Under the pieces are notes generated by a model. The model made no database searches. It had not been told where the DNA came from and saw only the letters and a program-made list of their open reading frames with translations. DNA of 32,175 nucleotides from an uncultured Thermoplasmatales archaeon (GTDB lineage: Archaea > Thermoplasmatota > E2 > UBA202 > JdFR-43), in assembly GCA_964572575.1 (NCBI GenBank), contig CAZNGK010000001.1, positions 1-32,175 of the forward strand, given 5' to 3'. Each line of letters opens with the position of its first letter. The first letter of the stretch is position 1. Made by a program: the position numbers and the translations under genes. Of the stretch, positions 299 to 30,274 are shown one piece after another.

Positions 299-332
299 AT
301 TTTTTATAATTTAAATCAATATAAATATGTTT

Positions 333-665
333 TCATAATCCTAAAGTCATATATCTTATCAGCCAATGTAAATCATTTAAAAAATCTATACTAACAAGGA
401 TCAAAAGCACCATGCATGAATATATGGTTGCTCTTTCCCACACTTCACTTTTTGGTATTTTAAAATATAGGATGTATAGCACAAGCCAGATGAATGCAAT
501 ATAGAATATTGCCACAAAAACCCCTGCTATTCCATCTGATGAAAAGAAATAAGCCATGATAGGATTTCCCTCAATCGCACCAGCACTCAATAAGAAAATT
601 GTTATCCACAACGCCAAGAAGTTAATGGTCATGGAATAAACAAACAATTTCTCCTTTAAATTCAT
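333..665 (-). CDS. small integral membrane protein (3-4 hydrophobic helices)
   Basis: Hydrophobic segments throughout. The EGNPIM loop is reminiscent of DUF5658-type membrane proteins (from memory, unverified). Confidence 0.55.
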   Translation of the reverse strand: MNLKEKLFVYSMTINFLALWITIFLLSAGAIEGNPIMAYFFSSDGIAGVFVAIFYIAFIWLVLYILYFKIPKSEVWERATIYSCMVLLILVSIDFLNDLHWLIRYMTLGL

Positions 666-677
666 GATAATAAAAAA

Positions 678-1127
678 TCAACTGCTTTTTAAAATTTTCA
701 GTAACTCCCTGCCCTTATCTGTTATTGCATATAGTCCTTTATGAAGCATTTCCACCAATCCAAAATTAATGCATCTGATTATGTTCCATCCAAACCACCC
801 AGGGCTTTTTCCTGTCTTTTCATAGATTTCATGTGGTCTAACTGGTCTATCCAAATCGTTCAGAATCTCAAGAATTTCCTTCACATTGTTCAACATCTTT
901 TTTTTCTGGAGGATATTAACTATTTCATCAAAATTAAGTTCTCTATATGGAAAATAAAGTCCGTAGCCATCCCCCTCCACAATGATCTTTTCCCTCATCA
1001 ATTTTTTAAGAATCCAGTTTGCACCAGAATGTCCCACTCCAAGTTTGATTATCATATCCTGTGTTAAAACCCCCTTCTCTTCTAATAGTTGCCTTGCTCT
1101 CTCATAGGCAGTTACATTTTCTTCCAT
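678..1127 (-). CDS. tandem winged-helix DNA-binding protein
   Basis: Two wHTH-like segments (ERARQLLEEKGVLTQDMI..., RPHEIYEKTGKSPGW...). The track start at 1142 is TTG and lies inside promoter A2, so ATG 1127 (22 bp downstream of the TATA) is preferred. Confidence 0.6.
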   Translation of the reverse strand: MEENVTAYERARQLLEEKGVLTQDMIIKLGVGHSGANWILKKLMREKIIVEGDGYGLYFPYRELNFDEIVNILQKKKMLNNVKEILEILNDLDRPVRPHEIYEKTGKSPGWFGWNIIRCINFGLVEMLHKGLYAITDKGRELLKILKSS

Positions 1128-1134
1128 CAAAGTT

Positions 1135-1170
1135 AAATACAATTTTACTATTTAAGGATTTTGTTCAAAT
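1135..1170 (-). promoter_or_regulatory. Family-A promoter module, copy A2
   Basis: aaatacaattttactatttaaggattttgttcaaat sits exactly between the methyltransferase stop (1171) and the next start (1127). Confidence 0.65.
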
Positions 1171-1926
1171 TTAATATTCATCCAATCTGGTATTTGGAAT
1201 TTTATTCAACCGCTTTTCCGCAATTTCAACCCATTTAGGATTTATTTCTATACCAATGTAGTGGCGATTTAATTTCCTTGCCACATAGCATGTAGTTCCA
1301 ACACCGCAAAATGGATCTAAAACAATATCTTCTTCATAACTCCACCATCTTACTAATGGCTCTATTAATGCGATTGGTTTTTGGGTTGGATGTTTGGTTC
1401 TCTCTCTCCCTTGGCATATCGGCGTAGAAATTACATCATGCATCTGTCCCTCTCTCCAGTTGTAATGATGCCCCGCCCCATGATTTTTTGTTGCTATGAT
1501 AAATGCTTCCCATGAGTTCATAAACTTTACCTTTCTCGCCTGTGGAACAGGATTGGTTTTATGCCATACTCCTATATGCCTTACTTTCATCTTTAAATCA
1601 TCCTCTAAAAATCTGCACATATCTGATATATCCCTCTTTTTTAAGAATGTAATAAGCACACCATTATCTTTCAGTTTTTCATAAACAACAGGAATCCAAT
1701 CTTTCCAGTGAATGCCAACCATAACTTCTCTATGCTCTACCAACCCTTTGTGAATATCTGTTGTCTTTCCAAATTTCCCACCATTCCTAACTATTACAGA
1801 TGGTTCTTCCTCAATTCCATATGGTGGATCTGTTAAACATAAGTCAATGCTTTTATCTGGCAATTCTGGAAGAAGTTTCAATGCATCCCCCTCTATTACT
1901 CTATCAATAAAGTTTTCAATACTCAT
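1171..1926 (-). CDS. DNA methyltransferase, beta-class (N6-adenine or N4-cytosine), DPPY type
   Basis: N-terminal motif IV LTDPPYGI and C-terminal motif I LDPFCGVGTT. This IV-then-I order is typical of beta-class amino-MTases. The track start 1935 is GTG; ATG 1926 (MSIENF) is preferred. Confidence 0.9.
   Translation of the reverse strand: MSIENFIDRVIEGDALKLLPELPDKSIDLCLTDPPYGIEEEPSVIVRNGGKFGKTTDIHKGLVEHREVMVGIHWKDWIPVVYEKLKDNGVLITFLKKRDISDMCRFLEDDLKMKVRHIGVWHKTNPVPQARKVKFMNSWEAFIIATKNHGAGHHYNWREGQMHDVISTPICQGRERTKHPTQKPIALIEPLVRWWSYEEDIVLDPFCGVGTTCYVARKLNRHYIGIEINPKWVEIAEKRLNKIPNTRLDEY
1233..1323. repeat. 91-bp perfect inverted repeat, copy 1 (partner 18317-18407)
   Basis: The reverse complement of 1233-1323 is base-for-base identical to 18317-18407. 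It lies in the motif-I region of the MTase gene. Confidence 0.95.
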
Positions 1927-1953
1927 ATATAGCACCTTGTCTTTCCATAATGG

Positions 1954-1989
1954 AAATACAATTTTATTATTTAAGGATTTTGTTTAAGG
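1954..1989 (-). promoter_or_regulatory. Family-A promoter module, copy A3
   Basis: aaatacaattttattatttaaggattttgtttaagg lies upstream of the MTase gene 1171-1926. Confidence 0.6.
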
Positions 1990-2036
1990 TTAATTCAATT
2001 TAGAAAAGATTTTTAACCATAAGTTTCTTTATATAT

Positions 2037-2354
2037 GTGGAATTAGAGAATTTCATTAAGGATGAAATAAGCAGGATGTTTGAAAGAAAGAGAAAATTTG
2101 TCAATGTAGAGGCAAAACTCGATGTTGGATTTTTAGATCACCAACCAATAGAGGGAGAAAGTGTTTATGGAGAAGCATACCCCTTTGAAAAGCCACCAAG
2201 GGTTAGAATAGATATTTTCCCAATAGATGCAACAAAAAAGGATATTGAGGCAACAATATGCCATGAATTGGTGCATATTAAACATCCAGAATTGGAACAT
2301 AGCAAAGAATTTGAAAAGAAGGTAAAGGAGTGCATAACAGAATCTTTTATGTAA
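2037..2354 (+). CDS. small HExxH zinc metallopeptidase-like protein (SprT/DUF45-like)
   Basis: ICHELVHIKHPELEH contains HExxH plus a downstream His. GTG start. Confidence 0.55.
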   Translation: MELENFIKDEISRMFERKRKFVNVEAKLDVGFLDHQPIEGESVYGEAYPFEKPPRVRIDIFPIDATKKDIEATICHELVHIKHPELEHSKEFEKKVKECITESFM

Positions 2355-2365
2355 CTGCCCTTCAC

Positions 2366-2415
2366 AGAATGCAAAATTTCAACGAAAACCCCCCACTTTT
2401 TGTGTTAAATTTGCT
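2366..2415 (+). repeat. lox/FRT-like site 1: arm L1 (23 nt), core ccccccac, arm R1 (19 nt)
   Basis: agaatgcaaaatttcaacgaaaa-ccccccac-tttttgtgttaaatttgct. The arms are imperfect inverted repeats of each other. The partner site is at 8587-8636. Confidence 0.7.
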
Positions 2416-2457
2416 GTTTCATTAAATCATAAAAATAAGAAATAGGGAAAGGGTTGT

Positions 2458-2697
2458 TTATATGAACATTGGGTCAAATTTCTTTTCCTCTTTTTCATTG
2501 ATCAAAACTAAATCTTCTTCCTCCAATGCATAGAGATCTATTATCTTCTCCTTTTCCTTCTGTATTTCCTTATCCTCCATTGCCTTCTCAATGATTTTAT
2601 TTGCCAAATTCACTGCCTCGCTGGGGTTATCTGTTTTCACATGAAGGAACATGCTAACTATCATTTCAGGTTCTTTTTCCTTTCTCTTTCCATTCAT
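2458..2697 (-). CDS. hypothetical acidic protein (79 aa)
   Basis: Last ORF of the coupled minus-strand chain; its start overlaps the stop of the upstream ORF. Confidence 0.5.
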   Translation of the reverse strand: MNGKRKEKEPEMIVSMFLHVKTDNPSEAVNLANKIIEKAMEDKEIQKEKEKIIDLYALEEEDLVLINEKEEKKFDPMFI

Positions 2698-2930
2698 TTT
2701 ATCTCCTCCTTTTCCTCAATATGGTTTATTAGATCCTGTATTATTTCTGTAAAAGGCAATATGAATGATTTTCTGAAATCATCTATATCAATGCATATTC
2801 CTTCGCTATTGTATGTCATTGTAAATTTTCTTCTCTTGCCTTTTATTTCTGCTTCCCCATTTCCAATATGCCCTACCAAATGTATTATGGTAACCGCATT
2901 TTCTGGATAATCTTTCTCTTTCCACTTCAT
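2694..2930 (-). CDS. hypothetical protein (78 aa)
   Basis: ATGA-type overlap at both ends. The SD (GGAGGGA) is embedded in the upstream gene tail. Confidence 0.55.
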   Translation of the reverse strand: MKWKEKDYPENAVTIIHLVGHIGNGEAEIKGKRRKFTMTYNSEGICIDIDDFRKSFILPFTEIIQDLINHIEEKEEIK

Positions 2931-3130
2931 TCTATTCCCTCCATTGCTAAATCCGAAAGATAACTATTTATGGCATGGACTATACCTTCAAAATCGTTTA
3001 TTTTCTGCAATTCCTCTAACAAGTCAAAATTATCGCAATCCTCTATTTTAAAGAATAGTCCTACCTCGTCTTTATGTTCATTAAACCATTCCCGCAATAT
3101 CCTTTTTTGCTTCTTTGTTAATCCCTTCAT
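2927..3130 (-). CDS. hypothetical protein (67 aa)
   Basis: Preceded by the junction AAATGGAGGGATGAAAAATGAAGG (SD inside the upstream stop region). Confidence 0.55.
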   Translation of the reverse strand: MKGLTKKQKRILREWFNEHKDEVGLFFKIEDCDNFDLLEELQKINDFEGIVHAINSYLSDLAMEGIE

Positions 3131-3133
3131 TTT

Positions 3134-3430
3134 TCATCCCTCCATTTTCTTTTCAATTTCTTTTATCTTTTTATTTATCTCCCTCAATTGCTTTAGCAAT
3201 GTTAATTTCTTTTTATGTAACTCTATGAATATAGGATCTATCTGTGGTTTGCATTTCATTGAGTTTATCGCTTTCTCAATATCATTGCCATAATTGTTTG
3301 TTAATGCTAACTGGAATTTTCCACATTTATGGCATTGCCCTGTAAATCTCAATGGAGATAGGCATAATGTTGGATTTTTTTCAGGATCTAAAACATCCTT
3401 TGAATTAACAACCGCTACCTTCATTTTCAT
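3134..3430 (-). CDS. hypothetical protein (98 aa), possible Cys4 metal site
   Basis: Its Cys residues include a CHKC pair (CLSP...QCHKCGKF...KCKP). Preceded by a junction nearly identical to the one at 3123-3148. Confidence 0.55.
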   Translation of the reverse strand: MKMKVAVVNSKDVLDPEKNPTLCLSPLRFTGQCHKCGKFQLALTNNYGNDIEKAINSMKCKPQIDPIFIELHKKKLTLLKQLREINKKIKEIEKKMEG

Positions 3431-3738
3431 CCCTCCATTTCGCTTACATCATCTATAACAAATTCACAAATTTCGTTCAATGTTTCATACAGTTTATCTT
3501 TTGCTTCGTTTTCATCTCTTGCCTCAATTCTGCCGTGAACTTCAAAATAAAATACTTTATACTTTTCTCTTTCCAATCGTTCCCTTTCTTCATATATATT
3601 ATACTCTGTTCCACATTGTGGGCATACTATTATGGTTTTGCTGGAAAAATCCTTGAATTGCCAATCATCCCCAACAGGACAACCACATTCCCTGCATTTT
3701 TCTATTTCTAATTCATTTAATATATCAATTGCCTTCAT
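3427..3738 (-). CDS. zinc-ribbon protein (about 103 aa)
   Basis: CRECGC...CPQCG. The track start 3828 overlaps the upstream gene by 88 nt. ATG 3738 follows the upstream stop (3741-3743) and the SD GGAGGGG. Confidence 0.6.
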   Translation of the reverse strand: MKAIDILNELEIEKCRECGCPVGDDWQFKDFSSKTIIVCPQCGTEYNIYEERERLEREKYKVFYFEVHGRIEARDENEAKDKLYETLNEICEFVIDDVSEMEG

Positions 3739-3740
3739 CT

Positions 3741-4295
3741 TTACCCCTCCATTTCCATTATTACATTTCCTTCCATATCCATGATTACATATGCTTCCTT
3801 TCCGCATGTGCATTTCTCTTGCCCGCATTCAGAACATATCATTATGCCTTCGCTTTCAATTTCATTCAATGCATTTATGAAATCTGCCAATTCACTTTCA
3901 TATATTCCAAGATCCATTACCTTTTCCAGTTGTTCTTTGCATTCATTGTATATTTTTTCTGCTCTCCTGCTATCACTGTTATATCCATACTCACCGCAAA
4001 ACTCCTCAAAATCCATGCTTCCTGCCCATGCATCCTCCAAGAATGATTTAAAAGCCAAAAGCATATCCATGAGATCCATTGTTGTTTTTCCCTTTTCCCA
4101 GTTCGCATTTGAATCATAGAATTTGAATGATTTTGTTATTGCCCCGTTCTCAAATTCCCTTTTTACTGTTATCTCAAATACATTGTGCATCATGTTATCA
4201 TCGCTATTAGGGAATCCCTCTATTTCTCCTATGTGCTTCGCTGTTATTTCAAATTCCTTATCCAGTATTGTTAATTTTGCTCTTACCATTTCCAT
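3741..4295 (-). CDS. hypothetical protein (184 aa) with C-terminal CxxC...CxC
   Basis: Long intact ORF, coupled start (GGAGGAATGGAAATGG), C-terminal CSECGQEKCTCG. Confidence 0.6.
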   Translation of the reverse strand: MEMVRAKLTILDKEFEITAKHIGEIEGFPNSDDNMMHNVFEITVKREFENGAITKSFKFYDSNANWEKGKTTMDLMDMLLAFKSFLEDAWAGSMDFEEFCGEYGYNSDSRRAEKIYNECKEQLEKVMDLGIYESELADFINALNEIESEGIMICSECGQEKCTCGKEAYVIMDMEGNVIMEMEG

Positions 4296-4534
4296 TCCTC
4301 CTGCTCTAATTCTTTTAGCATTTTCATTGCATTTTCATAGTTATCATATTCAAATATCGCAAAAATGCTATCACTATCTATCCTTGTAAATCTGCCATTA
4401 TGTTGTTCTATGAATGCCCTTGTTTTTTCATGCTCTTTTTCATCAAGGGCATATGCCATTACTTCAATTTTATATGTTTTGCTACCATCTTCGTTCTCAT
4501 ACTCGTAAAATTCGCTTATTACTTTCTCATTCAT
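4283..4534 (-). CDS. hypothetical protein (83 aa)
   Basis: Start overlaps the upstream stop by 8 nt, with the SD AAAGGGGGGAT upstream. Confidence 0.55.
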   Translation of the reverse strand: MNEKVISEFYEYENEDGSKTYKIEVMAYALDEKEHEKTRAFIEQHNGRFTRIDSDSIFAIFEYDNYENAMKMLKELEQEEWKW

Positions 4535-4877
4535 TGCGATCCCCCCTTTCCATTTCCATCTTTATAATTACTGCATCTGTCAGCCATATGCCTCTTAATG
4601 CCTTAAAGATATTCGCCAGTTGCCAGTTATCACCCTTGTAATCTACTAATTCATCCTCAAGTATGTTTTTGAATTCATCTATTGCCTCGCCATCATTTTT
4701 AGCAAACTGTATGAATTTTAGCATTGCCATGCCTATTGCATGTTCCTTGTCATATCCGCCCTGTTCTGCATATTTCTCCGCTTCATAGAGTGCAAATTCG
4801 CCCGCTACAGGAGTTCCCGTATTTGCCCCGCATGGTGCATCTATCTCATACAATCTTCTTATTACCTTTTCAAACAT
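4527..4877 (-). CDS. hypothetical protein (116 aa)
   Basis: ATGA overlap with the upstream gene at 4875-4879, with the SD GGGGGTGAT. Confidence 0.55.
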   Translation of the reverse strand: MFEKVIRRLYEIDAPCGANTGTPVAGEFALYEAEKYAEQGGYDKEHAIGMAMLKFIQFAKNDGEAIDEFKNILEDELVDYKGDNWQLANIFKALRGIWLTDAVIIKMEMERGDRNE

Positions 4878-5449
4878 CAGTTATCACCCCCTATTATGCT
4901 TATTAAATCTTCTTTACTTATGTTGTATTTCTCCATCATTGCTTCTATCTCATATTTTATCATCTGTTTTATATCAACCTTTATGATCCCCTCCCTTTCG
5001 GCATAGTATTTCGCTGTTTTAATCAATGTATTTATTACTTTACTGCCATTGCTTTCATTTTTATAAAACTGCTTCATTGCTGTTTTTATATCATCATCTA
5101 TCGCATCCATCTCCTTCCTGTTGTTTATGAATGTTATTGATGCTATCATATTTAGATCATTGTTTATTGCATAATACAATGTATAACTGCATCTGCTATT
5201 TTTCCATGATGAGAAATCATCAAGCACAATGTAAAACTCCCCATTTCTAAATGAATAAAGTCCATGCCCTCTACTGCCCTCAATCGGAGAAAGAAAATCC
5301 AAGCCATTTTTTGTTATCCCTGCTATCCAGTATTTTCCTGCACATTTTGTATTTCTTACAATGTCCATCATTTTTTCAAATTCTGTGGGGATTACACCTT
5401 CAGCACCGCCCCCACTCACGGTGCATATCTTATTTCCTTCCATTTCCAT
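4877..5449 (-). CDS. hypothetical protein (190 aa), first gene of the transcription unit
   Basis: ATG 5449 lies about 30 bp downstream of the A4 TATA box. Confidence 0.6.
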   Translation of the reverse strand: MEMEGNKICTVSGGGAEGVIPTEFEKMMDIVRNTKCAGKYWIAGITKNGLDFLSPIEGSRGHGLYSFRNGEFYIVLDDFSSWKNSRCSYTLYYAINNDLNMIASITFINNRKEMDAIDDDIKTAMKQFYKNESNGSKVINTLIKTAKYYAEREGIIKVDIKQMIKYEIEAMMEKYNISKEDLISIIGGDN

Positions 5450-5465
5450 ATCACCCCAATATAGT

Positions 5466-5500
5466 AATACAAAAAAAGTATTTAAAGTTTTTGTTTAAAG
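5466..5500 (-). promoter_or_regulatory. Family-A promoter module, copy A4
   Basis: aatacaaaaaaagtatttaaagtttttgtttaaag. Together with the start of the downstream gene it is near-identical over about 65 bp to 7105-7165. Confidence 0.7.
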
Positions 5501-5566
5501 TTATTAACATACTATAAACTATTGTTTTGTATATATAAAAAATATAAGAGAAGGGAAAGGATCGCA

Positions 5567-5677
5567 TTACAGATTTTCAATGATTTTCCTTGCATCATCT
5601 TCAGTTAATAATGCCTCAATCAGTGTTGGAGATCTTATGCATATGGGATTTAATCCTGCCATCTCCAATGCTTTCAT
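5567..5677 (-). CDS. micro-ORF (36 aa), below the ORF-track cutoff
   Basis: MKALEMAGLNPICIRSPTLIEALLTEDDARKIIENL. TAATG overlap with the preceding micro-ORF. Confidence 0.35.
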   Translation of the reverse strand: MKALEMAGLNPICIRSPTLIEALLTEDDARKIIENL

Positions 5678-5763
5678 TAGTTTTTCTGTAAATATTGTAT
5701 TTGCATAGAAAAATGGGTATATGCCCCATATAGCATTTTCTTTAATCTTTCCTTATAACTCAT
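5677..5763 (-). CDS. micro-ORF (28 aa), below the ORF-track cutoff
   Basis: A strong SD AAGGAGGGAT sits 4 nt upstream of ATG 5763 (the SD ends at 5768), immediately after the PCNA stop (5775-5777). Confidence 0.4.
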   Translation of the reverse strand: MSYKERLKKMLYGAYTHFSMQIQYLQKN

Positions 5764-5774
5764 GCTATCCCTCC

Positions 5775-7112
5775 TTAATATTCTATTCTTGGTGCAAGAA
5801 GGAAATATCCCTGTATATCTCCAGTTTTAAAGTGTATTTTCATTGGATGATCTTTTGCCATCTCTATTTTTATTTTATCAACCTTTAGGGAATACAGTAA
5901 ATCAATGAATCCTTTAAGGTAATCTCCTATGTCATACATGCTCTTAATTTCCTCCTTATCATCCATGATATTTATTTCATCGCATTCATCTTTTTTGAAT
6001 ATTGCCTTTATGTGATCCACATCATTTTCTCCATATACAATTACTTTATCATGCTTGATCTCTATTTTACAATAATCGCTTATCTCATTTATGCTTCTTA
6101 TTGTTTTTCTCAATTTCTTTACTGGCAATATCGCTGATCCCTTAAATTCCATTGATGGTTCTTTTTCATATCCTATTTCATCCTTATCTAATAATGCTAT
6201 CGCAAAAGAAATATTCTCATGTTTTATGAATACTTTATCATCCTCTATCCTATCTATTGTTATTTCATCATTGCTTTCATAATGTTTTAAGAATTTCTTT
6301 ACTTTATTAATATCTATGGCAAATTCAGTATTTACTGAATTTTCATTTATTTCATCAGGCAATAGAGAAATATTCATCATGGCAACATGCCCAGGATCAA
6401 CAAAAATGGAGTTTATAACTGGCAATTCCATTTCCATTTCTCCATCTCCATGCTTTATTGTTTTTATGCCTATTATTGCTTCATCTCTTAAATATTCTAT
6501 GAGTTTAAAGAAATTCTCCATTTCCTTCTTATTTGTTTTTGCATTTATGATTATAGGCATCCAAGATTTTTCCAATTCCTCTATGTATTCTATGAAATGC
6601 CCAAAATTTTCATTTAATTCATCTTCTTTTATATCATTGCCTATCCTGAATATCCTATGCCTTATCAGTTTTATATAACATCTATGGCATAACTCCCTAT
6701 TTTCAAATGCCTTATGTATTGCTGAATATCTATGTATATTATAGGCATCCTCTATGCTTATTATAGTTTTTTTACAATCTTCACATAGCAAATTGAATGC
6801 CCTTTCCTCAATCTTCATCCTTTCCATTTCTCCATCATAGATCCTTTTATCAATTTCCTTATTTTCATCCTTTTTCTCTATCATTGCCCTCCATTCATCT
6901 ATCTGATTTTCATTGCCATCATTGTTAGCATTCAGGATCTCAAAAAATTCTTTACTGAATTTTACAGTTTTGCCATCATCCAGCATTATTGTATATTTGC
7001 TTGATCCATTTTCAGGCAATGCCTGTATTGTTCCAGTTTTGCATTCATATACTCCATCCACAAATTTTATTCTATCTCCTATCCTATACATCATCTCTAT
7101 CTCCATTTCCAT
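5775..7112 (-). CDS. PCNA (sliding clamp) homologue with a roughly 190 aa N-terminal extension (KOW-like barrel plus CxxC...CxxC)
   Basis: The C-terminal 255 aa or so align by eye along the whole length of archaeal PCNA (DEAxxxI, VDPGHVAMMNISL, KSMYDIGDYL, terminal FLLAPRIEY). The track start 7133 is TTG inside the promoter, so ATG 7112 is preferred. Confidence 0.8.
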   Translation of the reverse strand: MEMEIEMMYRIGDRIKFVDGVYECKTGTIQALPENGSSKYTIMLDDGKTVKFSKEFFEILNANNDGNENQIDEWRAMIEKKDENKEIDKRIYDGEMERMKIEERAFNLLCEDCKKTIISIEDAYNIHRYSAIHKAFENRELCHRCYIKLIRHRIFRIGNDIKEDELNENFGHFIEYIEELEKSWMPIIINAKTNKKEMENFFKLIEYLRDEAIIGIKTIKHGDGEMEMELPVINSIFVDPGHVAMMNISLLPDEINENSVNTEFAIDINKVKKFLKHYESNDEITIDRIEDDKVFIKHENISFAIALLDKDEIGYEKEPSMEFKGSAILPVKKLRKTIRSINEISDYCKIEIKHDKVIVYGENDVDHIKAIFKKDECDEINIMDDKEEIKSMYDIGDYLKGFIDLLYSLKVDKIKIEMAKDHPMKIHFKTGDIQGYFLLAPRIEY

Positions 7113-7126
7113 ATCACCAATATAGT

Positions 7127-7161
7127 AATACAAAAAAAGTATTTAAAGTTTTTGTTTAAAA
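7127..7161 (-). promoter_or_regulatory. Family-A promoter module, copy A5
   Basis: aatacaaaaaaagtatttaaagtttttgtttaaaa, TATA about 30 bp upstream of ATG 7112. Confidence 0.7.
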
Positions 7162-7219
7162 TTATTGTTTAAGAATGCCTATCTTTTTAATTTATTCCTC
7201 TATATAGGAATGAAAGAAA

Positions 7220-7247
7220 TTTTCATGTAATATTCATTACATGAAAA
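7220..7247. promoter_or_regulatory. perfect 12-bp-stem hairpin/palindrome (terminator or operator)
   Basis: ttttcatgtaat-attc-attacatgaaaa lies between the end of gene 7330-7701 and promoter A5. Confidence 0.5.
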
Positions 7248-7329
7248 AGAAAATGCAATAGGAAAAAAATTTCAAAATTTGATCCAAAAGGTTTATGCCA
7301 AGCAGATTCGGATGTTCTGAATAAGTTTT

Positions 7330-7701
7330 TTATATTCTTTCAACAATCAAATCTAATTCATTTACTTCTTTAAATTCATCTATGGTCAGAGGAATTTTAG
7401 ATGATACTTTCTTTTCAAATACTTCTATTGCTACCTTTTTTCCCTTTTTATTAAATACAAAAAAAGTATTATATTTATTTATTAACTTACCATTTTTTCC
7501 TTTCATCTGTTTTTGTTCTTTTCTACACCAACCAAGTGATCTGAATTTATCTAAAATTCTATATGCCTGACCGTATGGTATATTCAATTTTTTCGCAACA
7601 TCATTTGGCGATAATACCCAATCCTTTTTGAATGCAAGAAATAAAGTTAAATCCCCATTCCCTAATCCAAGTATTTCTTTAAGAAATTTAAATGTCTCCA
7701 T
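7330..7701 (-). CDS. winged-helix DNA-binding protein (123 aa)
   Basis: SPNDVAKKLNIPYGQAYRILDKFRSLGW looks like an HTH plus wing. The ATG is about 21 bp downstream of the A6 TATA. Confidence 0.65.
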   Translation of the reverse strand: METFKFLKEILGLGNGDLTLFLAFKKDWVLSPNDVAKKLNIPYGQAYRILDKFRSLGWCRKEQKQMKGKNGKLINKYNTFFVFNKKGKKVAIEVFEKKVSSKIPLTIDEFKEVNELDLIVERI

Positions 7702-7708
7702 ATTTCAT

Positions 7709-7733
7709 AATACAAAAAAAGTATTTAAGGTTT
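7709..7733 (-). promoter_or_regulatory. Family-A promoter module, copy A6
   Basis: aatacaaaaaaagtatttaaggttt. Confidence 0.65.
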
Positions 7734-7886
7734 AATGCGAAAGTTTACACTCCTTATTGCTCTTGGGCTTTTCTCTGGGGCTTTTGATAGAGGTATTTGT
7801 ATATACAAAACAATATATGAAAAAATGATTTAACAAATTAAACAATAGACAATAAGACAAAATTTATTTACAAATTCTATTGCCAA

Positions 7887-8534
7887 TCAATGTTTCTGTG
7901 GAAATACCAATTTTATTTTTGGAGGATCTGTGTCATATCCTCTTATGATCCTGCTCAAATTGGTATATTCACATGGGTATTCTATTGAAACAACAGATAT
8001 TCCAGATTTTTCAATCATGCCCGCAAGTATTGGAGATAAAATATAATCTCTATAAATCATGTTGGCACAAAATCTTATTCCACACATCTTTTTACAATGT
8101 TTATCAAATACCGTTAGTATATCAACTCCACCAATCTGAAATACTTCATGTCCATAATTTAGTATGAATCTCTCAACATTGCTATTCTCATTTATTGCCA
8201 TTCTCACAAGTTTATTCCTCAAATCATCCATTGTTTTTACAAATTCTTTCCTTTGCTTATTATATGTCCTTATCGCAAATCCACTTCCATCTGGCAACTC
8301 AACAATATCTTCCCTGGGAACTAAAAGGAAATCCTGCCTAAAATACTCACCTTCATCATCGCTATAATAGATTTTGGATGATAACCTTACATCACTATTG
8401 TAAATGTATTTAGGACCAATAATACCGTTTGGGATGGCAATATCGCACAATCTTATTATTCTAAATGGATGTTTTTCTTTGCTGATTTCCTTCAATTTTA
8501 ATTTCGCCGAAAGCAGTAACAACTTCTGGTCCAT
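7887..8534 (-). CDS. hypothetical protein (215 aa)
   Basis: Long intact ORF with no motif I can name. Confidence 0.6.
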   Translation of the reverse strand: MDQKLLLLSAKLKLKEISKEKHPFRIIRLCDIAIPNGIIGPKYIYNSDVRLSSKIYYSDDEGEYFRQDFLLVPREDIVELPDGSGFAIRTYNKQRKEFVKTMDDLRNKLVRMAINENSNVERFILNYGHEVFQIGGVDILTVFDKHCKKMCGIRFCANMIYRDYILSPILAGMIEKSGISVVSIEYPCEYTNLSRIIRGYDTDPPKIKLVFPQKH

Positions 8535-8586: not shown

Positions 8587-8636
8587 AGCAAATTTTACAC
8601 GGAAACCCCCCACTTTTCGTTGAAATTTTGCATTCT
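8587..8636 (+). repeat. lox/FRT-like site 2: arm L2 (19 nt), core ccccccac, arm R2 (23 nt)
   Basis: agcaaattttacacggaaa-ccccccac-ttttcgttgaaattttgcattct. R2 is the exact reverse complement of L1. L2 matches the reverse complement of R1 at 16 of 19 positions. The core has the same orientation as in site 1. Confidence 0.7.
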
Positions 8637-16579: not shown

Positions 16580-16602
16580 AAATACAATTTTATTATTTAA
16601 AG
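16580..16602 (-). promoter_or_regulatory. Family-A promoter module, copy A7
   Basis: aaatacaattttattatttaaag. Confidence 0.6.
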
Positions 16603-17163
16603 TTGATGATTGAGGTTACATGCAAATACTGTGGTTCTACGAATGTTGTAAAGGCGGGTAAAGTGAAATTAAAGAGTGGAAATAAAACAAGATATTACTG
16701 TAAGGATTGTAAAAAATACTTTACTGTTATGGATAGAAAAATAAAAGATAAAATATTGAATCTGTTGGATGAGGAAAAAACAATAAGTGATCTGAAAGAT
16801 GAAGTTAAAGCACACCACATGACTATAAGAGCATGTTTAAAGGAATTGATAAATGAAGGAAATGTAAAGGTCTATGAAAAGGATGGTAAAAAGTTTTATG
16901 TGAAAAATGATTATAAGAGCAAAAATGAAGTAAAAAATGAAGTAAAGAAGACAAATAATGTTCAATTACAACTTTCAAAAATTGTTACATTTGTAAAAAG
17001 CAAAGGATATGCAACTCTTGATGAAATAAAAGAATTATTGAATATAGAAAATGTTGCACTGGTTAAAAGAATGATATTGTTGCTTGTAAATGAAGGTATT
17101 CTATCAATAAAGGTTAGTGGCTTGATATTTAGAAAGGAATATGTTGTATGGAAGGGAGAGTAA
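16603..17163 (+). CDS. Zn-ribbon plus tandem wHTH DNA-binding protein
   Basis: N-terminal CKYCGS...YYCKDCKKYF, then two wHTH-like segments (TIRACLKELINEGNV, LVKRMILLLVNEGIL). Confidence 0.65.
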   Translation: MMIEVTCKYCGSTNVVKAGKVKLKSGNKTRYYCKDCKKYFTVMDRKIKDKILNLLDEEKTISDLKDEVKAHHMTIRACLKELINEGNVKVYEKDGKKFYVKNDYKSKNEVKNEVKKTNNVQLQLSKIVTFVKSKGYATLDEIKELLNIENVALVKRMILLLVNEGILSIKVSGLIFRKEYVVWKGE

Positions 17164-17179
17164 TGTAAAACTTTTACAT
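17163..17179. promoter_or_regulatory. 8-bp-arm palindrome atgtaaaa-c-ttttacat abutting the TATA CCTTAAATA (17186-17194)
   Basis: Lies between the stop at 17161-17163 and the MTase ATG 17216. Shares the 12-mer ttacatgaaaaa with the hairpin at 7220-7247. Confidence 0.5.
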
Positions 17180-17215
17180 GAAAAACCTTAAATATTCTTT
17201 TTATATTCTTATCAT

Positions 17216-18496
17216 ATGGCATGTGAATATGAACTTATAGAATCCTTTCTTGATAAAATTGTTCAAGGAGATGCAAAAGATATGCTAAAACAAATTCCAG
17301 ATAACTCAATAGATTGCATCATTACTTCACCGCCTTATTGGGGATTGAGAGATTATGGAAAAGAAACAAATACAATATGGGAAGATGGCTGGTATGGGCA
17401 ACTTGGACATGAGCCAACTCTGGATATGTATATTGATCATCTTTTAGAAATTACAAAAGAATTAAAAAGAGTATTAAAACCTACAGGTGTAATGTGGTGG
17501 AATCATGGAGATAGTTATGGTAGATTTGGGGGGCATCATGGTGGTGAAGATAGAAAACATGCTGGAGGAAAGAATTTGTGGGGAACATTACCAAAACAAC
17601 AGATTTCAGTGCCTGAAAAGTGTTTAAATCTTCAAAACTACCGTTTAATCCTTCGCATGATTGACGAACAGGGCTGGATTCTCCGCAACATCATAATTTG
17701 GTATAAACCAAATCATATGCCAAGTAGCGTTAAAGACAGATTCACAAATGCATACGAGCCAGTATTCATGCTTACTAAAAGCAAAAAATATTGGTTTGAT
17801 TTGGATGCAGTAAGAGTGCCACACAAAATAGATAGTATAAAAAGATCAGCAAGGGCGAGAAAATCAAAAAAATTAGATGCAAAGCAATACTCAACATCTT
17901 ATAAAAATGAATATATCGGCTATGAAAATTTATGGGAAAAATTTCAAAGAGGAGAGTTGAGAGGAGTTCATCCTTTTGGCAAAAATCCTGGTGATGTATG
18001 GATAATTACAACAGAACCATTTCCTGATTCTCATTTTGCTGTTTTTCCAACAAAATTGGTAAAGCCAATGATAAAAGCAGGATGCCCCCAATGGGTATGC
18101 AAGAAATGTGGAAGGGCAAGAGAAAGGATTGTAAAAAATCCTGAAAGAGATTATTCACAAGATTTAAATACCAAAGATAAGCATAAATGGAAAATAAAGG
18201 ATGATAAGTTACAAACAACTACACAACTTCATAGGGATGGTGGCGGAGTGTATTATAAAGGTGTTACCGTTGGCTGGACAGATTGCGGATGCGAGGCAGG
18301 ATGGGATGCTGGCATAGTTTTAGATCCATTTTGCGGTGTTGGAACTACATGCTATGTGGCAAGGAAATTAAATCGCCACTACATTGGTATAGAAATAAAT
18401 CCTAAATATGTAGAAATGGCACAAAAAAGGTTGGCAAAAATACCTGCAAGATTAGATAAGTTTTTAAAAATGAAGGGTGATGCACATGCTGAATAA
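17216..18496 (+). CDS. DNA methyltransferase, beta-class, SPPY type (N4-cytosine or N6-adenine) with a Cys-rich insert
   Basis: ITSPPYWG (motif IV), C-terminal LDPFCGVGTT (motif I), and the insert CPQWVCKKCG...CGC. Confidence 0.9.
   Translation: MACEYELIESFLDKIVQGDAKDMLKQIPDNSIDCIITSPPYWGLRDYGKETNTIWEDGWYGQLGHEPTLDMYIDHLLEITKELKRVLKPTGVMWWNHGDSYGRFGGHHGGEDRKHAGGKNLWGTLPKQQISVPEKCLNLQNYRLILRMIDEQGWILRNIIIWYKPNHMPSSVKDRFTNAYEPVFMLTKSKKYWFDLDAVRVPHKIDSIKRSARARKSKKLDAKQYSTSYKNEYIGYENLWEKFQRGELRGVHPFGKNPGDVWIITTEPFPDSHFAVFPTKLVKPMIKAGCPQWVCKKCGRARERIVKNPERDYSQDLNTKDKHKWKIKDDKLQTTTQLHRDGGGVYYKGVTVGWTDCGCEAGWDAGIVLDPFCGVGTTCYVARKLNRHYIGIEINPKYVEMAQKRLAKIPARLDKFLKMKGDAHAE
18317..18407. repeat. 91-bp perfect inverted repeat, copy 2 (partner 1233-1323)
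   Basis: Verified base by base. Identity drops sharply outside the tract. Confidence 0.95.
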
Positions 18497-19547
18497 TGAT
18501 TTTAAGGAAAAAATGAAGATATTCAGGGAATATCTTATTGTAAGAGCAAAAAGTAGTGCTGATACAATAGATAAATACACAAGATTTACAAAAGAATTTT
18601 TAGATTTTGTTAGCAAAAATTATGGTGTAACAAAAATAGTGGAAGTATCGCCAAAACATTTGGTTGAATGGATTAAATATCTAACCAAGAAGGACTATTC
18701 TGGAAACACCATCAATTTGAAAAGATCTGCTGTAATAAAGTTCTTTGATGCACTGTATAATGAAGAACCAGATAATCCAGATTTACAGAATAAAGTAATC
18801 CTTTTCAAAAATATTCATGGAATAGGAAAGGTGGATAGCAACCAGCATGAGCCAATACCAGTAGAATGGTTACCTAAATTAAAAGATGCTTCTCTAACAC
18901 TGGATGAAAAATTTGGATCAACTGAACACTATACCGCATTCATGTTTTTCTTATACACTGGTGGCAGATCACAGTTATATGGTGTCCTTGTGGATGAAAT
19001 TGATTTTGAAAATCACTGGTTAGAAACTTTTGTCAAAAGAGGCAAATACATAAAAATACCATTGCACCCGCACCTTGAGAAAGTAATAAAGTGGCATTTG
19101 AAAAATAGAGATTATGATTCCCCATATCTTTTCAAACATGGTAAATATCCATATGCTGATATTTATATAAATAAAAATAAGAAGGATTTTGAAAAATACC
19201 GTGATGTTATAAAAAATGCTGAAAAGTATAACATACCAAGAAATAAGCAGGAGGAGAAAAGGAACAGGGATTCAAATAGAAAGAATGTGAGCATATTATG
19301 TAACAGAATCAGAAAGGAGGCAGGATTTAATGAATCTCTTTACCCACACAGATTCAGGGAAACATTGCATTATGAATTTGAGGAACTTGGAGTTAGCATA
19401 AATACTGCTATGGCAATTGGTGGATGGAGTAAAGAAGATATGGCATACTATTACAGAAGAACTGGAAAGCATGTTAAAAAAGCACTGAAAGAGTTTGAGA
19501 AGATAGATTTGTTAAATATAAAAGAGGGTGATGAAAATGAATTATGA
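18477..19547 (+). CDS. tyrosine recombinase/integrase (XerC/D-like)
   Basis: N-terminal core-binding (SAM-like) region. Catalytic signature TGGR ... HRFR ... GGW ... YYY. The likely start is ATG 18480 or 18486, after the SD AGGGTGAT. Confidence 0.9.
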   Translation: MMHMLNNDFKEKMKIFREYLIVRAKSSADTIDKYTRFTKEFLDFVSKNYGVTKIVEVSPKHLVEWIKYLTKKDYSGNTINLKRSAVIKFFDALYNEEPDNPDLQNKVILFKNIHGIGKVDSNQHEPIPVEWLPKLKDASLTLDEKFGSTEHYTAFMFFLYTGGRSQLYGVLVDEIDFENHWLETFVKRGKYIKIPLHPHLEKVIKWHLKNRDYDSPYLFKHGKYPYADIYINKNKKDFEKYRDVIKNAEKYNIPRNKQEEKRNRDSNRKNVSILCNRIRKEAGFNESLYPHRFRETLHYEFEELGVSINTAMAIGGWSKEDMAYYYRRTGKHVKKALKEFEKIDLLNIKEGDENEL

Positions 19548-20037
19548 AATAAATAATATTATAACTGGACATTGGGCGTTGCCAAGACCAATTGGAAAAT
19601 ATAAAACACGACATCCAGATACATTATTAGTAAGATTGGAAGCACTTATAGGACCATATAGCATTAAAAAGATATTGCATTTATTTTGTGGTATATCAAA
19701 ATTCCCTAATACAGAGAGAGAGATCAGAATTGATATAAATCCAGAGGTAAAACCAGATTATATTATTGATTTAACTAAAGAAAAACTACCGTTTGAAGAT
19801 AATTCGTTTGATATTGTTTATGCAGATCCACCTTACTATGATTTCCCGCCTTACTCCTTTGTTGATGAAGCAGTTAGAGTTCTTAAACCATATGGATATT
19901 TAGCAATACTTCATCCATTAGTTTATAAAACACCAAAACAAACAAAAAGATGGGCGGTTATATCAATAGGCACTGGTCCAAATATGAGATTGCGATGTTT
20001 AAATATATTTAGAAAGATTAAAGTTGATGAACAATAA
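19528..20037 (+). CDS. small SAM-dependent methyltransferase with a DPPY motif (third MTase)
   Basis: LHLFCGIS (motif I-like) followed by DIVYADPPYY (motif IV). The likely start is ATG 19531 or 19537, after the SD AGGGTGAT. Confidence 0.6.
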   Translation: MMKMNYEINNIITGHWALPRPIGKYKTRHPDTLLVRLEALIGPYSIKKILHLFCGISKFPNTEREIRIDINPEVKPDYIIDLTKEKLPFEDNSFDIVYADPPYYDFPPYSFVDEAVRVLKPYGYLAILHPLVYKTPKQTKRWAVISIGTGPNMRLRCLNIFRKIKVDEQ

Positions 20038-20242
20038 AAGAATGGCATATACATTTGCTAAATATGAACATAAATTTGAAAATTTAACAAATATTGCTAT
20101 AATCATAACAACAATTGTTGCATATTTTATTAAAATAAATATAATTGTTTTCTCACTAATTATAATCATTGCAGTAATTCATACAGTAGCAAGAATATGC
20201 CATATTTTTGAGAAGCATTACTTTAACAACTCAAGAAAATAG
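20024..20242 (+). CDS. small membrane protein (72 aa)
   Basis: One long hydrophobic stretch. The stop codon overlaps the tRNA 3' end by 2 nt. Confidence 0.45.
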   Translation: MMNNKRMAYTFAKYEHKFENLTNIAIIITTIVAYFIKINIIVFSLIIIIAVIHTVARICHIFEKHYFNNSRK

Positions 20243-20314
20243 CGGGGAGAGGATTTGAACCTCTGATCTTCGGGATATGAACCCGATGGGTTATCCTGAC
20301 TACCCTACCCCGCT
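20241..20314 (-). tRNA. tRNA-Met (anticodon CAT), initiator-like
   Basis: Hand-folded cloverleaf: AGCGGGG/CCCCGCT acceptor with A1:U72, D stem GGGT/ACCC, anticodon stem TCGGG/CCCGA (three G:C pairs next to the loop), loop TTCATAT, T arm AGAGG-TTCAAAT-CCTCT. 74 nt, with no encoded CCA. Confidence 0.9.
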
Positions 20315-20672
20315 ACTTCAATTCATCTAAAGTTAAAATGCCAAGATCCATTAAAAGTTTTACCATGTTTATAGTTTGATTTTTTATATCCTCAAGAACT
20401 TCAGAATGATCTTCTGAATTTGGCAACTCTTTAAAAGGAATGCACTCATTATCAATCACTTCAAACCCACCACCAGGGCGTTTTCTGTATGGCATACCAT
20501 CTGGCTTTTTCCCGCCCCTTATCTTCCTTACTTGTATTACAATATCATCCTCATCTACTGGATTGTTCCTTCTGAATCTGTTCAACCATGCTCTTTCAAC
20601 CCAGTTCCATCCACAGGTGGGGCAAACCACATAATTTTCCCTAACATCTCCATCTTCACCAACATACGACAT
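20313..20672 (-). CDS. hypothetical protein (119 aa), basic Gly-rich centre
   Basis: Intact ORF. Its stop codon overlaps the tRNA 5' end by 2 nt. Confidence 0.55.
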   Translation of the reverse strand: MSYVGEDGDVRENYVVCPTCGWNWVERAWLNRFRRNNPVDEDDIVIQVRKIRGGKKPDGMPYRKRPGGGFEVIDNECIPFKELPNSEDHSEVLEDIKNQTINMVKLLMDLGILTLDELK

Positions 20673-27443: not shown

Positions 27444-28601
27444 ATGAAAAAGGCAAGTATAATATTGGTAGCGGTTGCAGTATGCGGGCTTGTGATTGCG
27501 AACATACCACAATCCGATGCATATACTTGGTATAATAACAGAAATACAGTAACAATACCATCATATACTGTGGGGAATGGATGGATAAATGCCTCACTAT
27601 ACTATGGTTCTTGGGTTTCCAGTGCTGGGGAGAATATGAGTGCTAATTGGAGTATGCCAACACCACTAAATGAAAGCAACAGCATTAGCATGAAAATTTA
27701 CAACAATGGAAGTGGTCCTATACACTGTAATCTGACAGTAAATGGTCATGAGCGTGTTAATAGTTCAACAACAATAAATGCTGGAATAGAGTTCAATGTT
27801 GCTTTTGATACCAGTTTATATCCACAGGACTATCTAAATATAACATTTAATGCCGATAGCACAGATGTTTTCCTGAATATATCAATAAATTGGGTTGATG
27901 CAACAGTAACAAAAACAGAGTTCATAACAGGTGTTCATGGATTGATAGGCAGTATCCAAGAAAGATACAAAACACATCCAGAAATAAAGTTTGATAAGGA
28001 TGCCAGTTACTATGTGGTGGAGGACAAAATAACAATAAGACCAGCATTTGTTGATACGAACAACTGGAGTATGGAAATATACGATGTCAATTTCACAATA
28101 CATTATCCAAGTAATGCCATAAATAGCCCAGTATCCAAGATATATGTTGATTATCTGAATCTATCATCGCCATCAGAAACACATTACATAGGATACCAGA
28201 AGCATGGTCCATATGTTTCAAGGATAGGAACTCCATCCCAAAATCCATATGGAGATTATGAACTTGGAATGCGTGTATATGCATACGAAGATGAGGAAGA
28301 TTGCAGTTGGGAGTTTGATCCTGAAAGCAGTGATTTGAGCAGTTATTTCCCATCACTTGACTATGACACACTAACAATAGAAATAAACGGAATTGAATAC
28401 AATTTCACAAGAGGAAGCATAGAAATAAGCGATATTGACCTTGATGAAGGGCAGAATACTGTTGAATTTCAATGGACACCAGAGCAGGTGATAACCCCAG
28501 TTACTCCAACTGAAAAAGATACAACACTGTGGCTAATTGGTGCAGGAATATTGATAGTTGGAGTGGTGCTTGTAGCGTTGATATTCATCAAGAGGAAGTA
28601 G
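27444..28601 (+). CDS. secreted, C-terminally anchored putative glycoprotein (385 aa)
   Basis: Sec-type signal peptide, 13 N-x-S/T sequons by my count, and a C-terminal TM LWLIGAGILIVGVVLVALIFIKRK. Confidence 0.7.
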   Translation: MKKASIILVAVAVCGLVIANIPQSDAYTWYNNRNTVTIPSYTVGNGWINASLYYGSWVSSAGENMSANWSMPTPLNESNSISMKIYNNGSGPIHCNLTVNGHERVNSSTTINAGIEFNVAFDTSLYPQDYLNITFNADSTDVFLNISINWVDATVTKTEFITGVHGLIGSIQERYKTHPEIKFDKDASYYVVEDKITIRPAFVDTNNWSMEIYDVNFTIHYPSNAINSPVSKIYVDYLNLSSPSETHYIGYQKHGPYVSRIGTPSQNPYGDYELGMRVYAYEDEEDCSWEFDPESSDLSSYFPSLDYDTLTIEINGIEYNFTRGSIEISDIDLDEGQNTVEFQWTPEQVITPVTPTEKDTTLWLIGAGILIVGVVLVALIFIKRK

Positions 28602-28609
28602 GTGATCCA

Positions 28610-29368
28610 ATGAAGACAAAAATAACTGCGATAGCAATGATTACTTTAATTGCTACAATTTTTTTCACACCACTACTTGATAGTAGGGCAGAAACTGTTT
28701 ATAAATGGGAACAATGGGAGGACAGTGATAGTAGGCAGGTAGAACTTGTGAATGCTGGTGATATACAAGTTTCAGAATTTACAGGATTTACCCCAGGTGC
28801 TTCATTCTATTGCTGGAATCCGTATATCTATGATGGTTCTTCGCTACAAAAAGGATACTGGCTTTCAGATGCAAAACCAGTGAAGTGTGTGTGGGAATAC
28901 TATGATCCACATATGCATAAATTTTACAGAGTTGAAAAGGATGTGGCAGTTGTATATGAAGGGGACTTTAATGGACATAGATATGCATTCGCTGATTACA
29001 ATGAGTTTATAATACCAGCACTTTTCATGCCAGATAGATACGGTGATTGGGCAGTTAGAAGTTACTTTATATTTGAGGGAGGCGGGCATGGTGGAGAAGG
29101 TCCAGTGGTTGATGAACAGGGAAATTCATACATGCTTTCATTCCCAGTTGTAAAGGGATCAACATTCAACCTGATATTCAATGCACCAATCTACCTCTTT
29201 GGGCATAAAACCATACCATTGTTCTGGTGGCTAATTCCAGTGTGGGCATTGATAATATTCTTCATAATTGCAGTGATCTACACAAGATCTGTGGTTGGTG
29301 CAGTGAGATTGATAAAAAATATTGCTGAAGCAACAAGAAAGGCAAAAACAGAGTGGAGGAGAAGATGA
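28610..29368 (+). CDS. secreted, C-terminally anchored protein, paralogue A (252 aa)
   Basis: ATG 28610 follows the extended SD AGGTGATCC. Signal peptide, C-terminal TM and an amphipathic tail ending KTEWRRR. Similar to the next gene. Confidence 0.65.
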   Translation: MKTKITAIAMITLIATIFFTPLLDSRAETVYKWEQWEDSDSRQVELVNAGDIQVSEFTGFTPGASFYCWNPYIYDGSSLQKGYWLSDAKPVKCVWEYYDPHMHKFYRVEKDVAVVYEGDFNGHRYAFADYNEFIIPALFMPDRYGDWAVRSYFIFEGGGHGGEGPVVDEQGNSYMLSFPVVKGSTFNLIFNAPIYLFGHKTIPLFWWLIPVWALIIFFIIAVIYTRSVVGAVRLIKNIAEATRKAKTEWRRR

Positions 29369-30021: not shown

Positions 30022-30027
30022 TGAAAA

Positions 30028-30273: not shown

Positions 30274-30274
30274 A

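Follow-up and report, generated by a model that had tools for sequence, protein, structure and literature searches.

How would a mobile element in which no polymerase is recognised make use of a DNA sliding clamp of its own, and why would further domains be joined to that clamp? These questions are raised by a gene in the first 32,175 nucleotides of contig CAZNGK010000001.1 of an uncultured Thermoplasmatales archaeon (hereafter the window, meaning the whole stretch of DNA that was analysed), which encodes a PCNA-like protein with a long N-terminal extension (the positions of all features are collected in Table 1). PCNA genes are known to occur in viruses without a polymerase, where their role is unclear, and a clamp alone is unable to tell viral DNA from cellular DNA (Kazlauskas et al., PMC4889955). 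A first-pass annotation, made from the letters of the sequence, had described the gene product as a full-length PCNA carrying a KOW-like and zinc-finger extension. On balance, we favour the reading that this is a single gene of an integrated plasmid- or provirus-like element in an AT-rich, probably thermophilic archaeon, and that its product is a complete, divergent clamp to which a KOW-like barrel and an exchangeable module are tethered, probably as docking adaptors.

The clamp part was recognised over its whole length by sequence comparison. In a phmmer search of the PDB, residues 233-444 of the fusion protein aligned with residues 34-243 of the 245-residue Archaeoglobus fulgidus PCNA (E = 1.3e-10), followed by six more archaeal PCNAs that included the element-borne PCNA2 of Thermococcus kodakarensis (E = 6.7e-7). 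An exhaustive phmmer search of 1.84 billion representatives gave 560 matches; among the best 150 of these, the family of the fusion protein aside, all were proteins of PCNA length or extended proteins that matched only the PCNA region of the query, at 23-41% identity and with E-values down to 2.6e-17. The NCBIfam model for the DNA polymerase sliding clamp (NF002222) matched with E = 4e-32 and a score of 111.6 bits against a cut-off of 207. When aligned with 25 canonical PCNAs of 240-250 amino acids (aa), residues 185-445 matched end to end, from the canonical Met1 to the LAPRIE motif, with Met185-Pro186 lying within about 3 residues of that Met1. The VDPxHVAM motif and the interdomain connector are present and L438-E444 (LLAPRIE) is identical to the consensus. 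The short insert that had been noticed in the clamp is also real, since it is missing from all 25 canonical PCNAs in the alignment; the strands around it are predicted at residues 211-221 and 228-238, and the tip of the hairpin reads HGDGEMEM, encoded by ATGGAAATGGA.

Structure prediction with AlphaFold2 (AF2) gave the same picture. Using the alignment of the four family sequences alone, the mean predicted local distance difference test score (pLDDT) was 42 and even the PCNA part was unusable. Using an alignment of 89 sequences, made up of the 4 family members and 85 canonical PCNAs gathered by profile search, the mean pLDDT rose to 85 and was mostly >90 across residues 185-445. The resulting model contains two beta-alpha-beta domains joined by the interdomain connector. 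All 50 matches listed by Foldseek against the PDB were PCNAs, with template modelling (TM) scores, normalised to the target, of 0.74-0.87; these included 0.85 to A. fulgidus PCNA (1rwz), 0.87 to 3ifv and 0.83 to T. kodakarensis PCNA2 (3lx2). Judged by sequence and by predicted fold, the C-terminal part is therefore a real, divergent, full-length PCNA, complete through LAPRIE, and the two-domain fold for which the first-pass annotation had proposed structure prediction as the check was obtained.

That the extension of ~184 residues belongs to the same protein follows from its conservation in frame, from a putative promoter located upstream of it and from the lack of a start signal before Met185. 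The open reading frame (ORF) is uninterrupted on the minus strand from ATG at 7112 to a stop codon at 5775-5777; alternative in-frame starts are TTG 7133 (upstream) and ATG 7106, 7094 and 7091, and the NCBI gene call is a protein of 439 aa beginning MMYRIG. The GC content of the window is ~30%, at which stops make up ~8% of random codons, and by our own arithmetic the chance of an open frame is ~1e-16 for 445 codons and ~2e-7 for the first 184 codons alone. The plus-strand ORFs within the gene are low-complexity antisense frames. We compared the window with the loci L002 (ENA), L003 and L004 (JGI), P0003 (ENA) and the partial L005. Five independent assemblies carry the extension in frame. No locus has a break in the reading frame, every length difference and linker indel between the loci preserves it, and ~60 N-terminal residues are conserved together with the clamp. 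The family is tiny, with about five members among 15 billion sequences. Among 5.8 billion clusters, just four proteins resembled the full protein, and metagenome scans added two loci. The fusion nevertheless recurs in NCBI, in two or three JGI metagenomes and in two ENA assemblies, at 64-79% protein identity. An assembly or annotation artefact, in which a chimeric contig or a missed frameshift had joined two genes, might be suspected from the frameshifted small gene that lies directly downstream in the window, but it is effectively refuted by these independent copies, whose sequences differ from one another, and its probability is negligible.

A second possibility is that two products are made, the long fusion and a stand-alone clamp from an internal start at Met185-Pro186, or that the short form alone is functional. 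All homologues share Met185-Pro186 without change, at what was the N-terminus of the ancestral PCNA. The PCNA part is also much more constrained than the extension; its ratio of nonsynonymous to synonymous substitution rates (dN/dS) is 0.22-0.25 against the more distant loci, by which measure it is under purifying selection. The signals for expression, however, lie at the KOW end of the gene. In the window, L002 and L004, a box resembling a transcription factor B recognition element (BRE) plus TATA precedes the ATG-GAA-ATG-GAG start region by 27-32 nt, and in the latter two the first ATG has a GGTGA 6 nt ahead of it. Over the 60 nt preceding Met185, neither a Shine-Dalgarno (SD) sequence of the GGTGAT or GGAGG type nor a conserved TATA box was found in any of four loci. 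The extension, moreover, has kept its open frame in AT-rich DNA despite heavy divergence. With the promoter-like and SD-like signals at the KOW end and none before Met185, an internal start giving a stand-alone clamp is unsupported, and we regard this explanation as improbable. The gene would instead have its own promoter, upstream of the extension. Its true start may be ATG 7112, 7106 or 7094, and the N-terminal domain is retained with every candidate start codon.

A short repeated sequence was observed at the start of the gene. The 11-mer ATGGAAATGGA, reading Met-Glu-Met-Glu, occurs 6 times in the window against 0.05 expected. It is found at the starts of two genes, the fusion gene and the one at 4877-5449, and also near two gene ends or junctions, while the copy at 6427-6437 encodes the tip (GEMEME) of the PCNA hairpin insertion. 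This last copy is preceded by GGAGATGGAG, which may form an internal start signal at Met226/228.

What, then, is attached to the clamp? The first module is probably a KOW-like barrel of the SH3 type, on evidence that is weak but consistent between sequence and model. Residues 7-62 are 73-89% identical among four family proteins. A profile of this domain searched against the PDB placed Spt5 KOW domains and ribosomal protein L24 at the top (E = 0.007-0.1), and the stretch IGDRIKFVDGVYEGKTGTI fits by eye the KOW core V-x-V-x2-G-x-[FY]-x-G-x2-G-x-[VI], with the middle glycine being a cysteine in the window copy. The AF2 model has four DSSP strands here (14-16, 26-31, 39-44 and 49-53) and a helix, with a pLDDT of 70-86 where the alignment is 4 deep; the Foldseek matches of the whole model are all PCNAs and hence say nothing on the fold of this domain. 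The Pfam matches were KOW4_SPT5 (E = 0.015, in two of the four members), SH3_KIN17_C (0.022), DUF1344 (2e-4) and Tudor, all below threshold, and Pfam KOW (PF00467) did not match. The KOW-like reading of the first-pass annotation is plausible from the visible motif and the ranking of Spt5 KOW and L24, with no Pfam KOW match reaching threshold. The domain is like the KOW domains of Spt5/NusG and L24 in its core motif, in its top PDB profile matches and in being predicted as a small all-beta domain; it differs from them in lacking an NGN domain and a ribosomal context, and no match is significant alone. No relative of the N-terminal module outside the family was present among the best 150 of the 560 phmmer matches, all of which were to the PCNA region; a word-indexed search with the 62-aa profile of the domain returned 3 candidates, 0 of which scored, and a second copy of the domain was not found elsewhere in the window or in the related loci.

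Between this domain and the clamp lie the acidic linker, which would form a flexible tether, and the cysteine-containing module that had been labelled a zinc finger. The four cysteines, C110, C113, C142 and C145 in the numbering of the 445-aa protein, form the pattern C-x2-C-x28-C-x2-C, and in sequence and model they probably make up a zinc-binding site. AF2 predicted helices at residues 85-107, 111-124, 128-137, 143-160 and 163-184, with a pLDDT of 81-95 over residues 100-150, and the last of these continues straight into the clamp. The linker and the Cys4 region had no PDB match at E<=10 and no Pfam match.

The same last helix carries a PIP (PCNA-interacting protein)-box-like motif, N-x-x-[MF]-x-x-F-[FI], at fusion residues 167-174 (~6591-6614, minus strand), just before the clamp. 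It reads NENFGHFI in the window and NERMNEFF in P0002 and L004, and is absent from P0003 and P0004. By its sequence the motif could be a chance occurrence or a self-binding, auto-inhibitory peptide.

Comparison of the loci showed that the middle module is not a constant part of the protein. The window, P0002/L003 and L004 keep the Cys4 module with its four cysteines; P0003 has no such module, and in its place P0004 has an insert of ~200 residues that is unrelated, rich in beta structure and equipped with a Cys cluster of its own. Because it is missing in one locus and replaced in another, the 'zinc finger' belongs to a set of inserts that can be exchanged, so that the linker and four cysteines described in the first-pass annotation are present but belong to a variable module that matches no known family. 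Across the sequences compared, the fixed architecture is KOW-like domain, tether and clamp. The possibility that the long insert of P0004 is a repeat of the N-terminal domain was rejected (hhalign probability 3%). Synonymous divergence between the window and L002 is 0.14 in the N-terminal domain and 0.59 in the clamp, and this sharp difference between regions suggests recombination between element variants. With three architectures attached to PCNA parts that are ~77-80% identical, the family shows the N-terminus of the clamp to be a permissive site for the gain, loss and exchange of modules, which bears on PCNA engineering and on the many uncharacterised extended PCNAs in metagenomes.

How might such a protein serve its element? 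Searches of the window with Pfam, PHROGs and NCBIfam recognised no polymerase, MCM, Orc1/Cdc6 or RFC, and no capsid, terminase, Rep or primase, in agreement with what the first-pass annotation had seen of the replication genes; as about half of the ORFs in the window lack an annotation, this is no proof of their absence. In the reading that we favour, the clamp part would trimerise into a ring that is loaded by the host RFC, as has been proposed for 'shell' PCNAs (PMC3914693), and the ring would bind host PIP-box enzymes such as PolB/PolD, Fen1 and ligase. Through its three tethered N-terminal modules, serving as built-in adaptors, the ring would dock to one particular protein or nucleic acid, possibly one of the element's own DNA-binding proteins, and docking would bias the host replication or repair machinery towards element DNA. 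That a trimeric ring can form in the presence of an N-terminal extension is known from pE301R of African swine fever virus (ASFV), a ring clamp whose extension aids trimer stability and DNA binding (PMC10320598).

A more specific and rather speculative version, to which we give a low probability, is that the clamp is self-addressed: the KOW-like barrel and the middle module of each variant would dock the ring to an element or host partner, thereby steering the replisome or repair enzymes to element DNA or coupling the ring to the transcription or translation machinery. KOW domains in Spt5/NusG couple to transcription or translation machinery. If true, such a clamp would explain what an element without a polymerase gains from a PCNA of its own, and retargeting or an arms race would lie behind the fast turnover of the middle module. 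The clamps of polymerase-less archaeal viruses and plasmids are a recognised puzzle (PMC4889955), to which an attached docking domain would be a concrete and testable solution: the element would supply a ring with its own address label, and host factors would load and use that ring.

Several results weigh against this reading. Both Pfam models of the clamp scored below their gathering values (PCNA_N 15.4 vs 20.3; PCNA_C 16 vs 23), so that, with NF002222, the protein falls under every curated family threshold. With strong E-values but scores below the Pfam and NCBIfam cut-offs, it is best described from its sequence as a clear homologue yet a divergent outlier, and not as an equivalog of the cellular clamp. 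The residue at 61 of the 102 well-conserved columns differs from that of a canonical PCNA clade, and partner binding may therefore be altered or lost. The assignment of the N-terminal domain to KOW is itself below threshold, and its dN/dS of 0.46-0.85, obtained from divergent pairs over ~56 codons and with low dS, is not clearly purifying. Finally, nothing related was found among GenBank phages, PLSDB plasmids or IMG/VR.

A further explanation, the decoy already raised in the first-pass annotation, is that the protein gives no support to replication but is a decoy or poison clamp. It would tie up the PIP-box proteins of the host, or form mixed assemblies with host PCNA and so redirect or inhibit host replication, with the N-terminal modules lending a new activity. 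The strong divergence from canonical PCNAs and the family-specific hairpin insertion are in line with such a role, as are the lack of a recognised cognate polymerase or clamp loader in the window and the fact that Kazlauskas et al. (PMC4889955) call the role of PCNAs in viruses without a polymerase unclear. The DNA-facing surface, however, is more basic than that of canonical clamps, the four predicted inner helices having 15 Lys/Arg where 85 canonical PCNAs have ~7 on average, and both the LAPRIE tail and the interdomain connector are intact; a decoy would need neither. There is also no positive sign of inhibition, and purifying selection acts on the PCNA part. The basic character of its inner helices and its complete LAPRIE tail, as seen in sequence and model, argue for a working, DNA-encircling and PIP-binding clamp over a pure decoy, which we consider unlikely.

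How unusual is this architecture among known clamps? Compared with archaeal PCNA (PF00705 and PF02747; NF002222; 1RWZ), the fusion protein shares the full-length alignment, a fold with a TM score of 0.85, the basic inner helices, the connector and the C-terminal tail. It differs in its identity of 20-36%, its scores below the curated thresholds, the 12-residue hairpin insertion and a 184-residue N-terminal extension with two modules. A close parallel is PCNA2 of T. kodakarensis (TK0582), an extra, 'shell' PCNA carried on the integrated element TKV3, which has no polymerase of its own (PMC3914693). Its structure (3LX2) resembles the model of the fusion protein with a TM score of 0.83, and both are extra clamps on an integrated element; TK0582, in contrast, is a stand-alone protein of ~250 residues, to which the fusion protein adds the KOW-like and Cys4 modules. 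ASFV pE301R differs in that its extension is ~35 residues long and not a folded domain, its host is eukaryotic and the virus has its own polymerase.

Extensions are not rare in the wider family. Among the 137 nearest full-length PCNA representatives, 20 (15%) have N-terminal extensions of at least 30 aa, 8 of them of at least 80 aa, and 6 have C-terminal extensions; CxxC pairs occur in some extensions, although most are acidic tails. That PCNAs stand alone hence holds only in broad terms. The metagenomic proteins P0078 (410 aa, with CxxC pairs), P0087 (471 aa) and P0091, and the C-extended P0032, P0082 and P0085, follow the same design principle as the fusion protein, that is a divergent PCNA, an acidic tether and extra terminal modules. 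The N-terminal module had no detectable similarity in these other extended PCNAs, and the extensions of the divergent metagenomic PCNAs had no Pfam matches. From their sequences, the extended metagenomic PCNAs apparently represent an undescribed diversity of modular clamps. In the literature searches made on PCNA fusions and on PCNA with KOW domains, no KOW-PCNA fusion was found described. With these extended PCNAs and with published cases such as ASFV pE301R and VP1 of Haloarcula californiae icosahedral virus 1 (HCIV-1), the architecture is less unusual than the first-pass annotation had supposed, and the protein is an incremental variation on known element-borne PCNAs and no new kind of system.

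HCIV-1 VP1 also raises the question of whether the PCNA fold serves here as a structural or regulatory scaffold outside replication, with the KOW-like domain perhaps providing a link to transcription or translation. When the model was compared with predicted viral structures by Foldseek, the best match was an 804-aa protein of HCIV-1, and the list also contained long PCNAs of giant viruses, ASFV pE301R and a poxvirus late transcription factor (compare VLTF-1). VP1 is a virion protein with PCNA domains from a virus without a polymerase gene (PMC4958249). Like the fusion protein, this archaeal virus protein has PCNA linked covalently to further modules; it differs in being a structural protein of at least 804 aa, with unrelated added parts and no KOW-like N-terminal domain. 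KOW domains are typical of Spt5/NusG and ribosomal proteins, which would suit a scaffold of this kind. Against it, the fusion protein has one complete PCNA unit with canonical termini and is not a large protein enclosing a PCNA domain; none of the genes in the window was recognised as a virion gene, and the gene neighbours are regulators and methylases and not structural genes. We regard a scaffold function as quite unlikely, slightly more so than the decoy, and retain the reading of a tethered, working clamp.

The surroundings of the gene look like an integrated plasmid or provirus. Genes from ~300 to 8500 lie on the minus strand and have a promoter box in common, with 8 matches in the window against 0.75 expected when the overlapping 3-mismatch match at 7153-7170 is counted. 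The box is identical upstream of the gene at 4877-5449 and precedes at least five transcription units besides the fusion gene, and its copies upstream of separate units suggest co-regulated expression of the element genes. The plus strand of the window encodes a radical-SAM/SPASM protein, further winged helix-turn-helix and Zn-ribbon proteins, a second N6/N4 DNA methylase and the tyrosine recombinase. The segment 18477-20315, with its recombinase, methyltransferase fragment and tRNA gene, is probably the integration junction; no att direct repeat of the tRNA was found within the window. The fraction of I, V, Y, W, R, E and L residues (IVYWREL) is 0.43, corresponding to a rough optimal growth temperature of ~67-71 C, which suggests a thermophilic host. 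In GenBank phages and PLSDB the fusion protein matched distant ordinary PCNAs only, from a Methanomicrobiales virus (19% identity) and haloarchaeal plasmids (23-27%), and the tyrosine recombinase had no match in either set. Neither the fusion alignment nor two proteins encoded next to it had a match in IMG/VR, and the sole match in a genome collection was a Woesearchaeota PCNA at 26% identity.

Table 1 Features of the window (BRE, transcription factor B recognition element; SD, Shine-Dalgarno)
Feature	Position	Strand	Basis or remark
Fusion gene, KOW-like/Cys4/PCNA, complete coding sequence	5775..7112	(-)	445 aa + stop (445 codons)
KOW-like small beta domain, residues 7-62, then short helix	6927..7094	(-)	Profile matches and AF2
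Acidic, Asn-rich low-confidence linker, residues 63-84	6861..6926	(-)	pLDDT 40-57; variable, indels between homologues
Variable helical module, residues 85-184	6561..6860	(-)	AF2: five helices, C110/C113 and C142/C145 at helix starts
Complete two-domain PCNA module, residues 185-445	5778..6560	(-)	Sequence searches, AF2 and Foldseek
Family-specific insertion, ~12 residues (213-224, IIGIKTIKHGDG)	6441..6476	(-)	Lengthens first beta-hairpin, after first helix
Putative archaeal-type promoter box, BRE plus TATA, AAACAAAAACTTTAAATA	7140..7157	(-)	Ends 27 nt upstream of ATG 7112
GGTGAT SD-like hexamer	7113..7118	(-)	Directly before ATG-GAA-ATG-GAG start region; read from sequence
11-mer ATGGAAATGGA copies	3748-3758, 4549-4559, 5439-5449, 6427-6437, 7102-7112	(-)	
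11-mer ATGGAAATGGA copy	30984-30994	(+)	
Element promoter-like box AAACAAAAACYTTAAATA, BRE plus TATA	12-29, 1149-1166, 1968-1985, 5479-5496, 7140-7157, 16594-16611	(-)	
Element promoter-like box AAACAAAAACYTTAAATA copy	17177-17194	(+)	
Small downstream gene	5567..5763	(-)	Strong SD AAGGAGGG; 12 nt past PCNA stop; syntenic in L002 and L004
Oligo-T run, after small gene	5537..5542	(-)	Likely archaeal transcription stop ahead of promoter box 5479-5496
TrmB-like winged-helix regulator, upstream neighbour of fusion gene	7330..7701	(-)	Pfam TrmB E = 1.3e-5, just below threshold; syntenic in L002
N6/N4 DNA methylase	1171-1935	(-)	Annotation scan
Divergent tyrosine recombinase	18477-19547	(+)	Near tRNA-Met
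C-terminal methyltransferase fragment	19528-20037		After tyrosine recombinase
Initiator-type tRNA-Met	20239-20315	(-)	A1:U72, GGG/CCC anticodon stem

The small gene downstream of the fusion gene, with which it is probably co-transcribed, encodes 65-69 aa in L004 and L002. The window copy has lost 1 nt near 5726 (GG-GGC vs GGAGGC) and with it the reading frame; from the sequence this copy is either a pseudogene or the result of an assembly error.

A 44-nt imperfect palindrome with a CCCCCC centre (GCAAAATTTCAACGAAAACCCCCCACTTTTTGTGTTAAATTTGC) is present in two copies, at 2371-2414 and 8588-8631, 6.2 kb from each other and one on either side of the minus-strand block with the clamp gene. The copy at 8588-8631 is located in a divergent intergenic region, where the GC skew changes sign (~9 kb). 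These palindromes could be terminators, recombination sites or origin elements.

At the other end of the window, a plus-strand operon at 27444-31612 encodes conserved proteins of 385, ~252, ~218, 81 and 445 aa that are without annotation, and no Pfam or PHROG match was obtained in this region. Its composition is less thermophile-like than that of the left part of the window. The operon continues in related contigs (L006-L008) with an S8 peptidase and an S24 peptidase, and it may be a cell-surface or secretion module.

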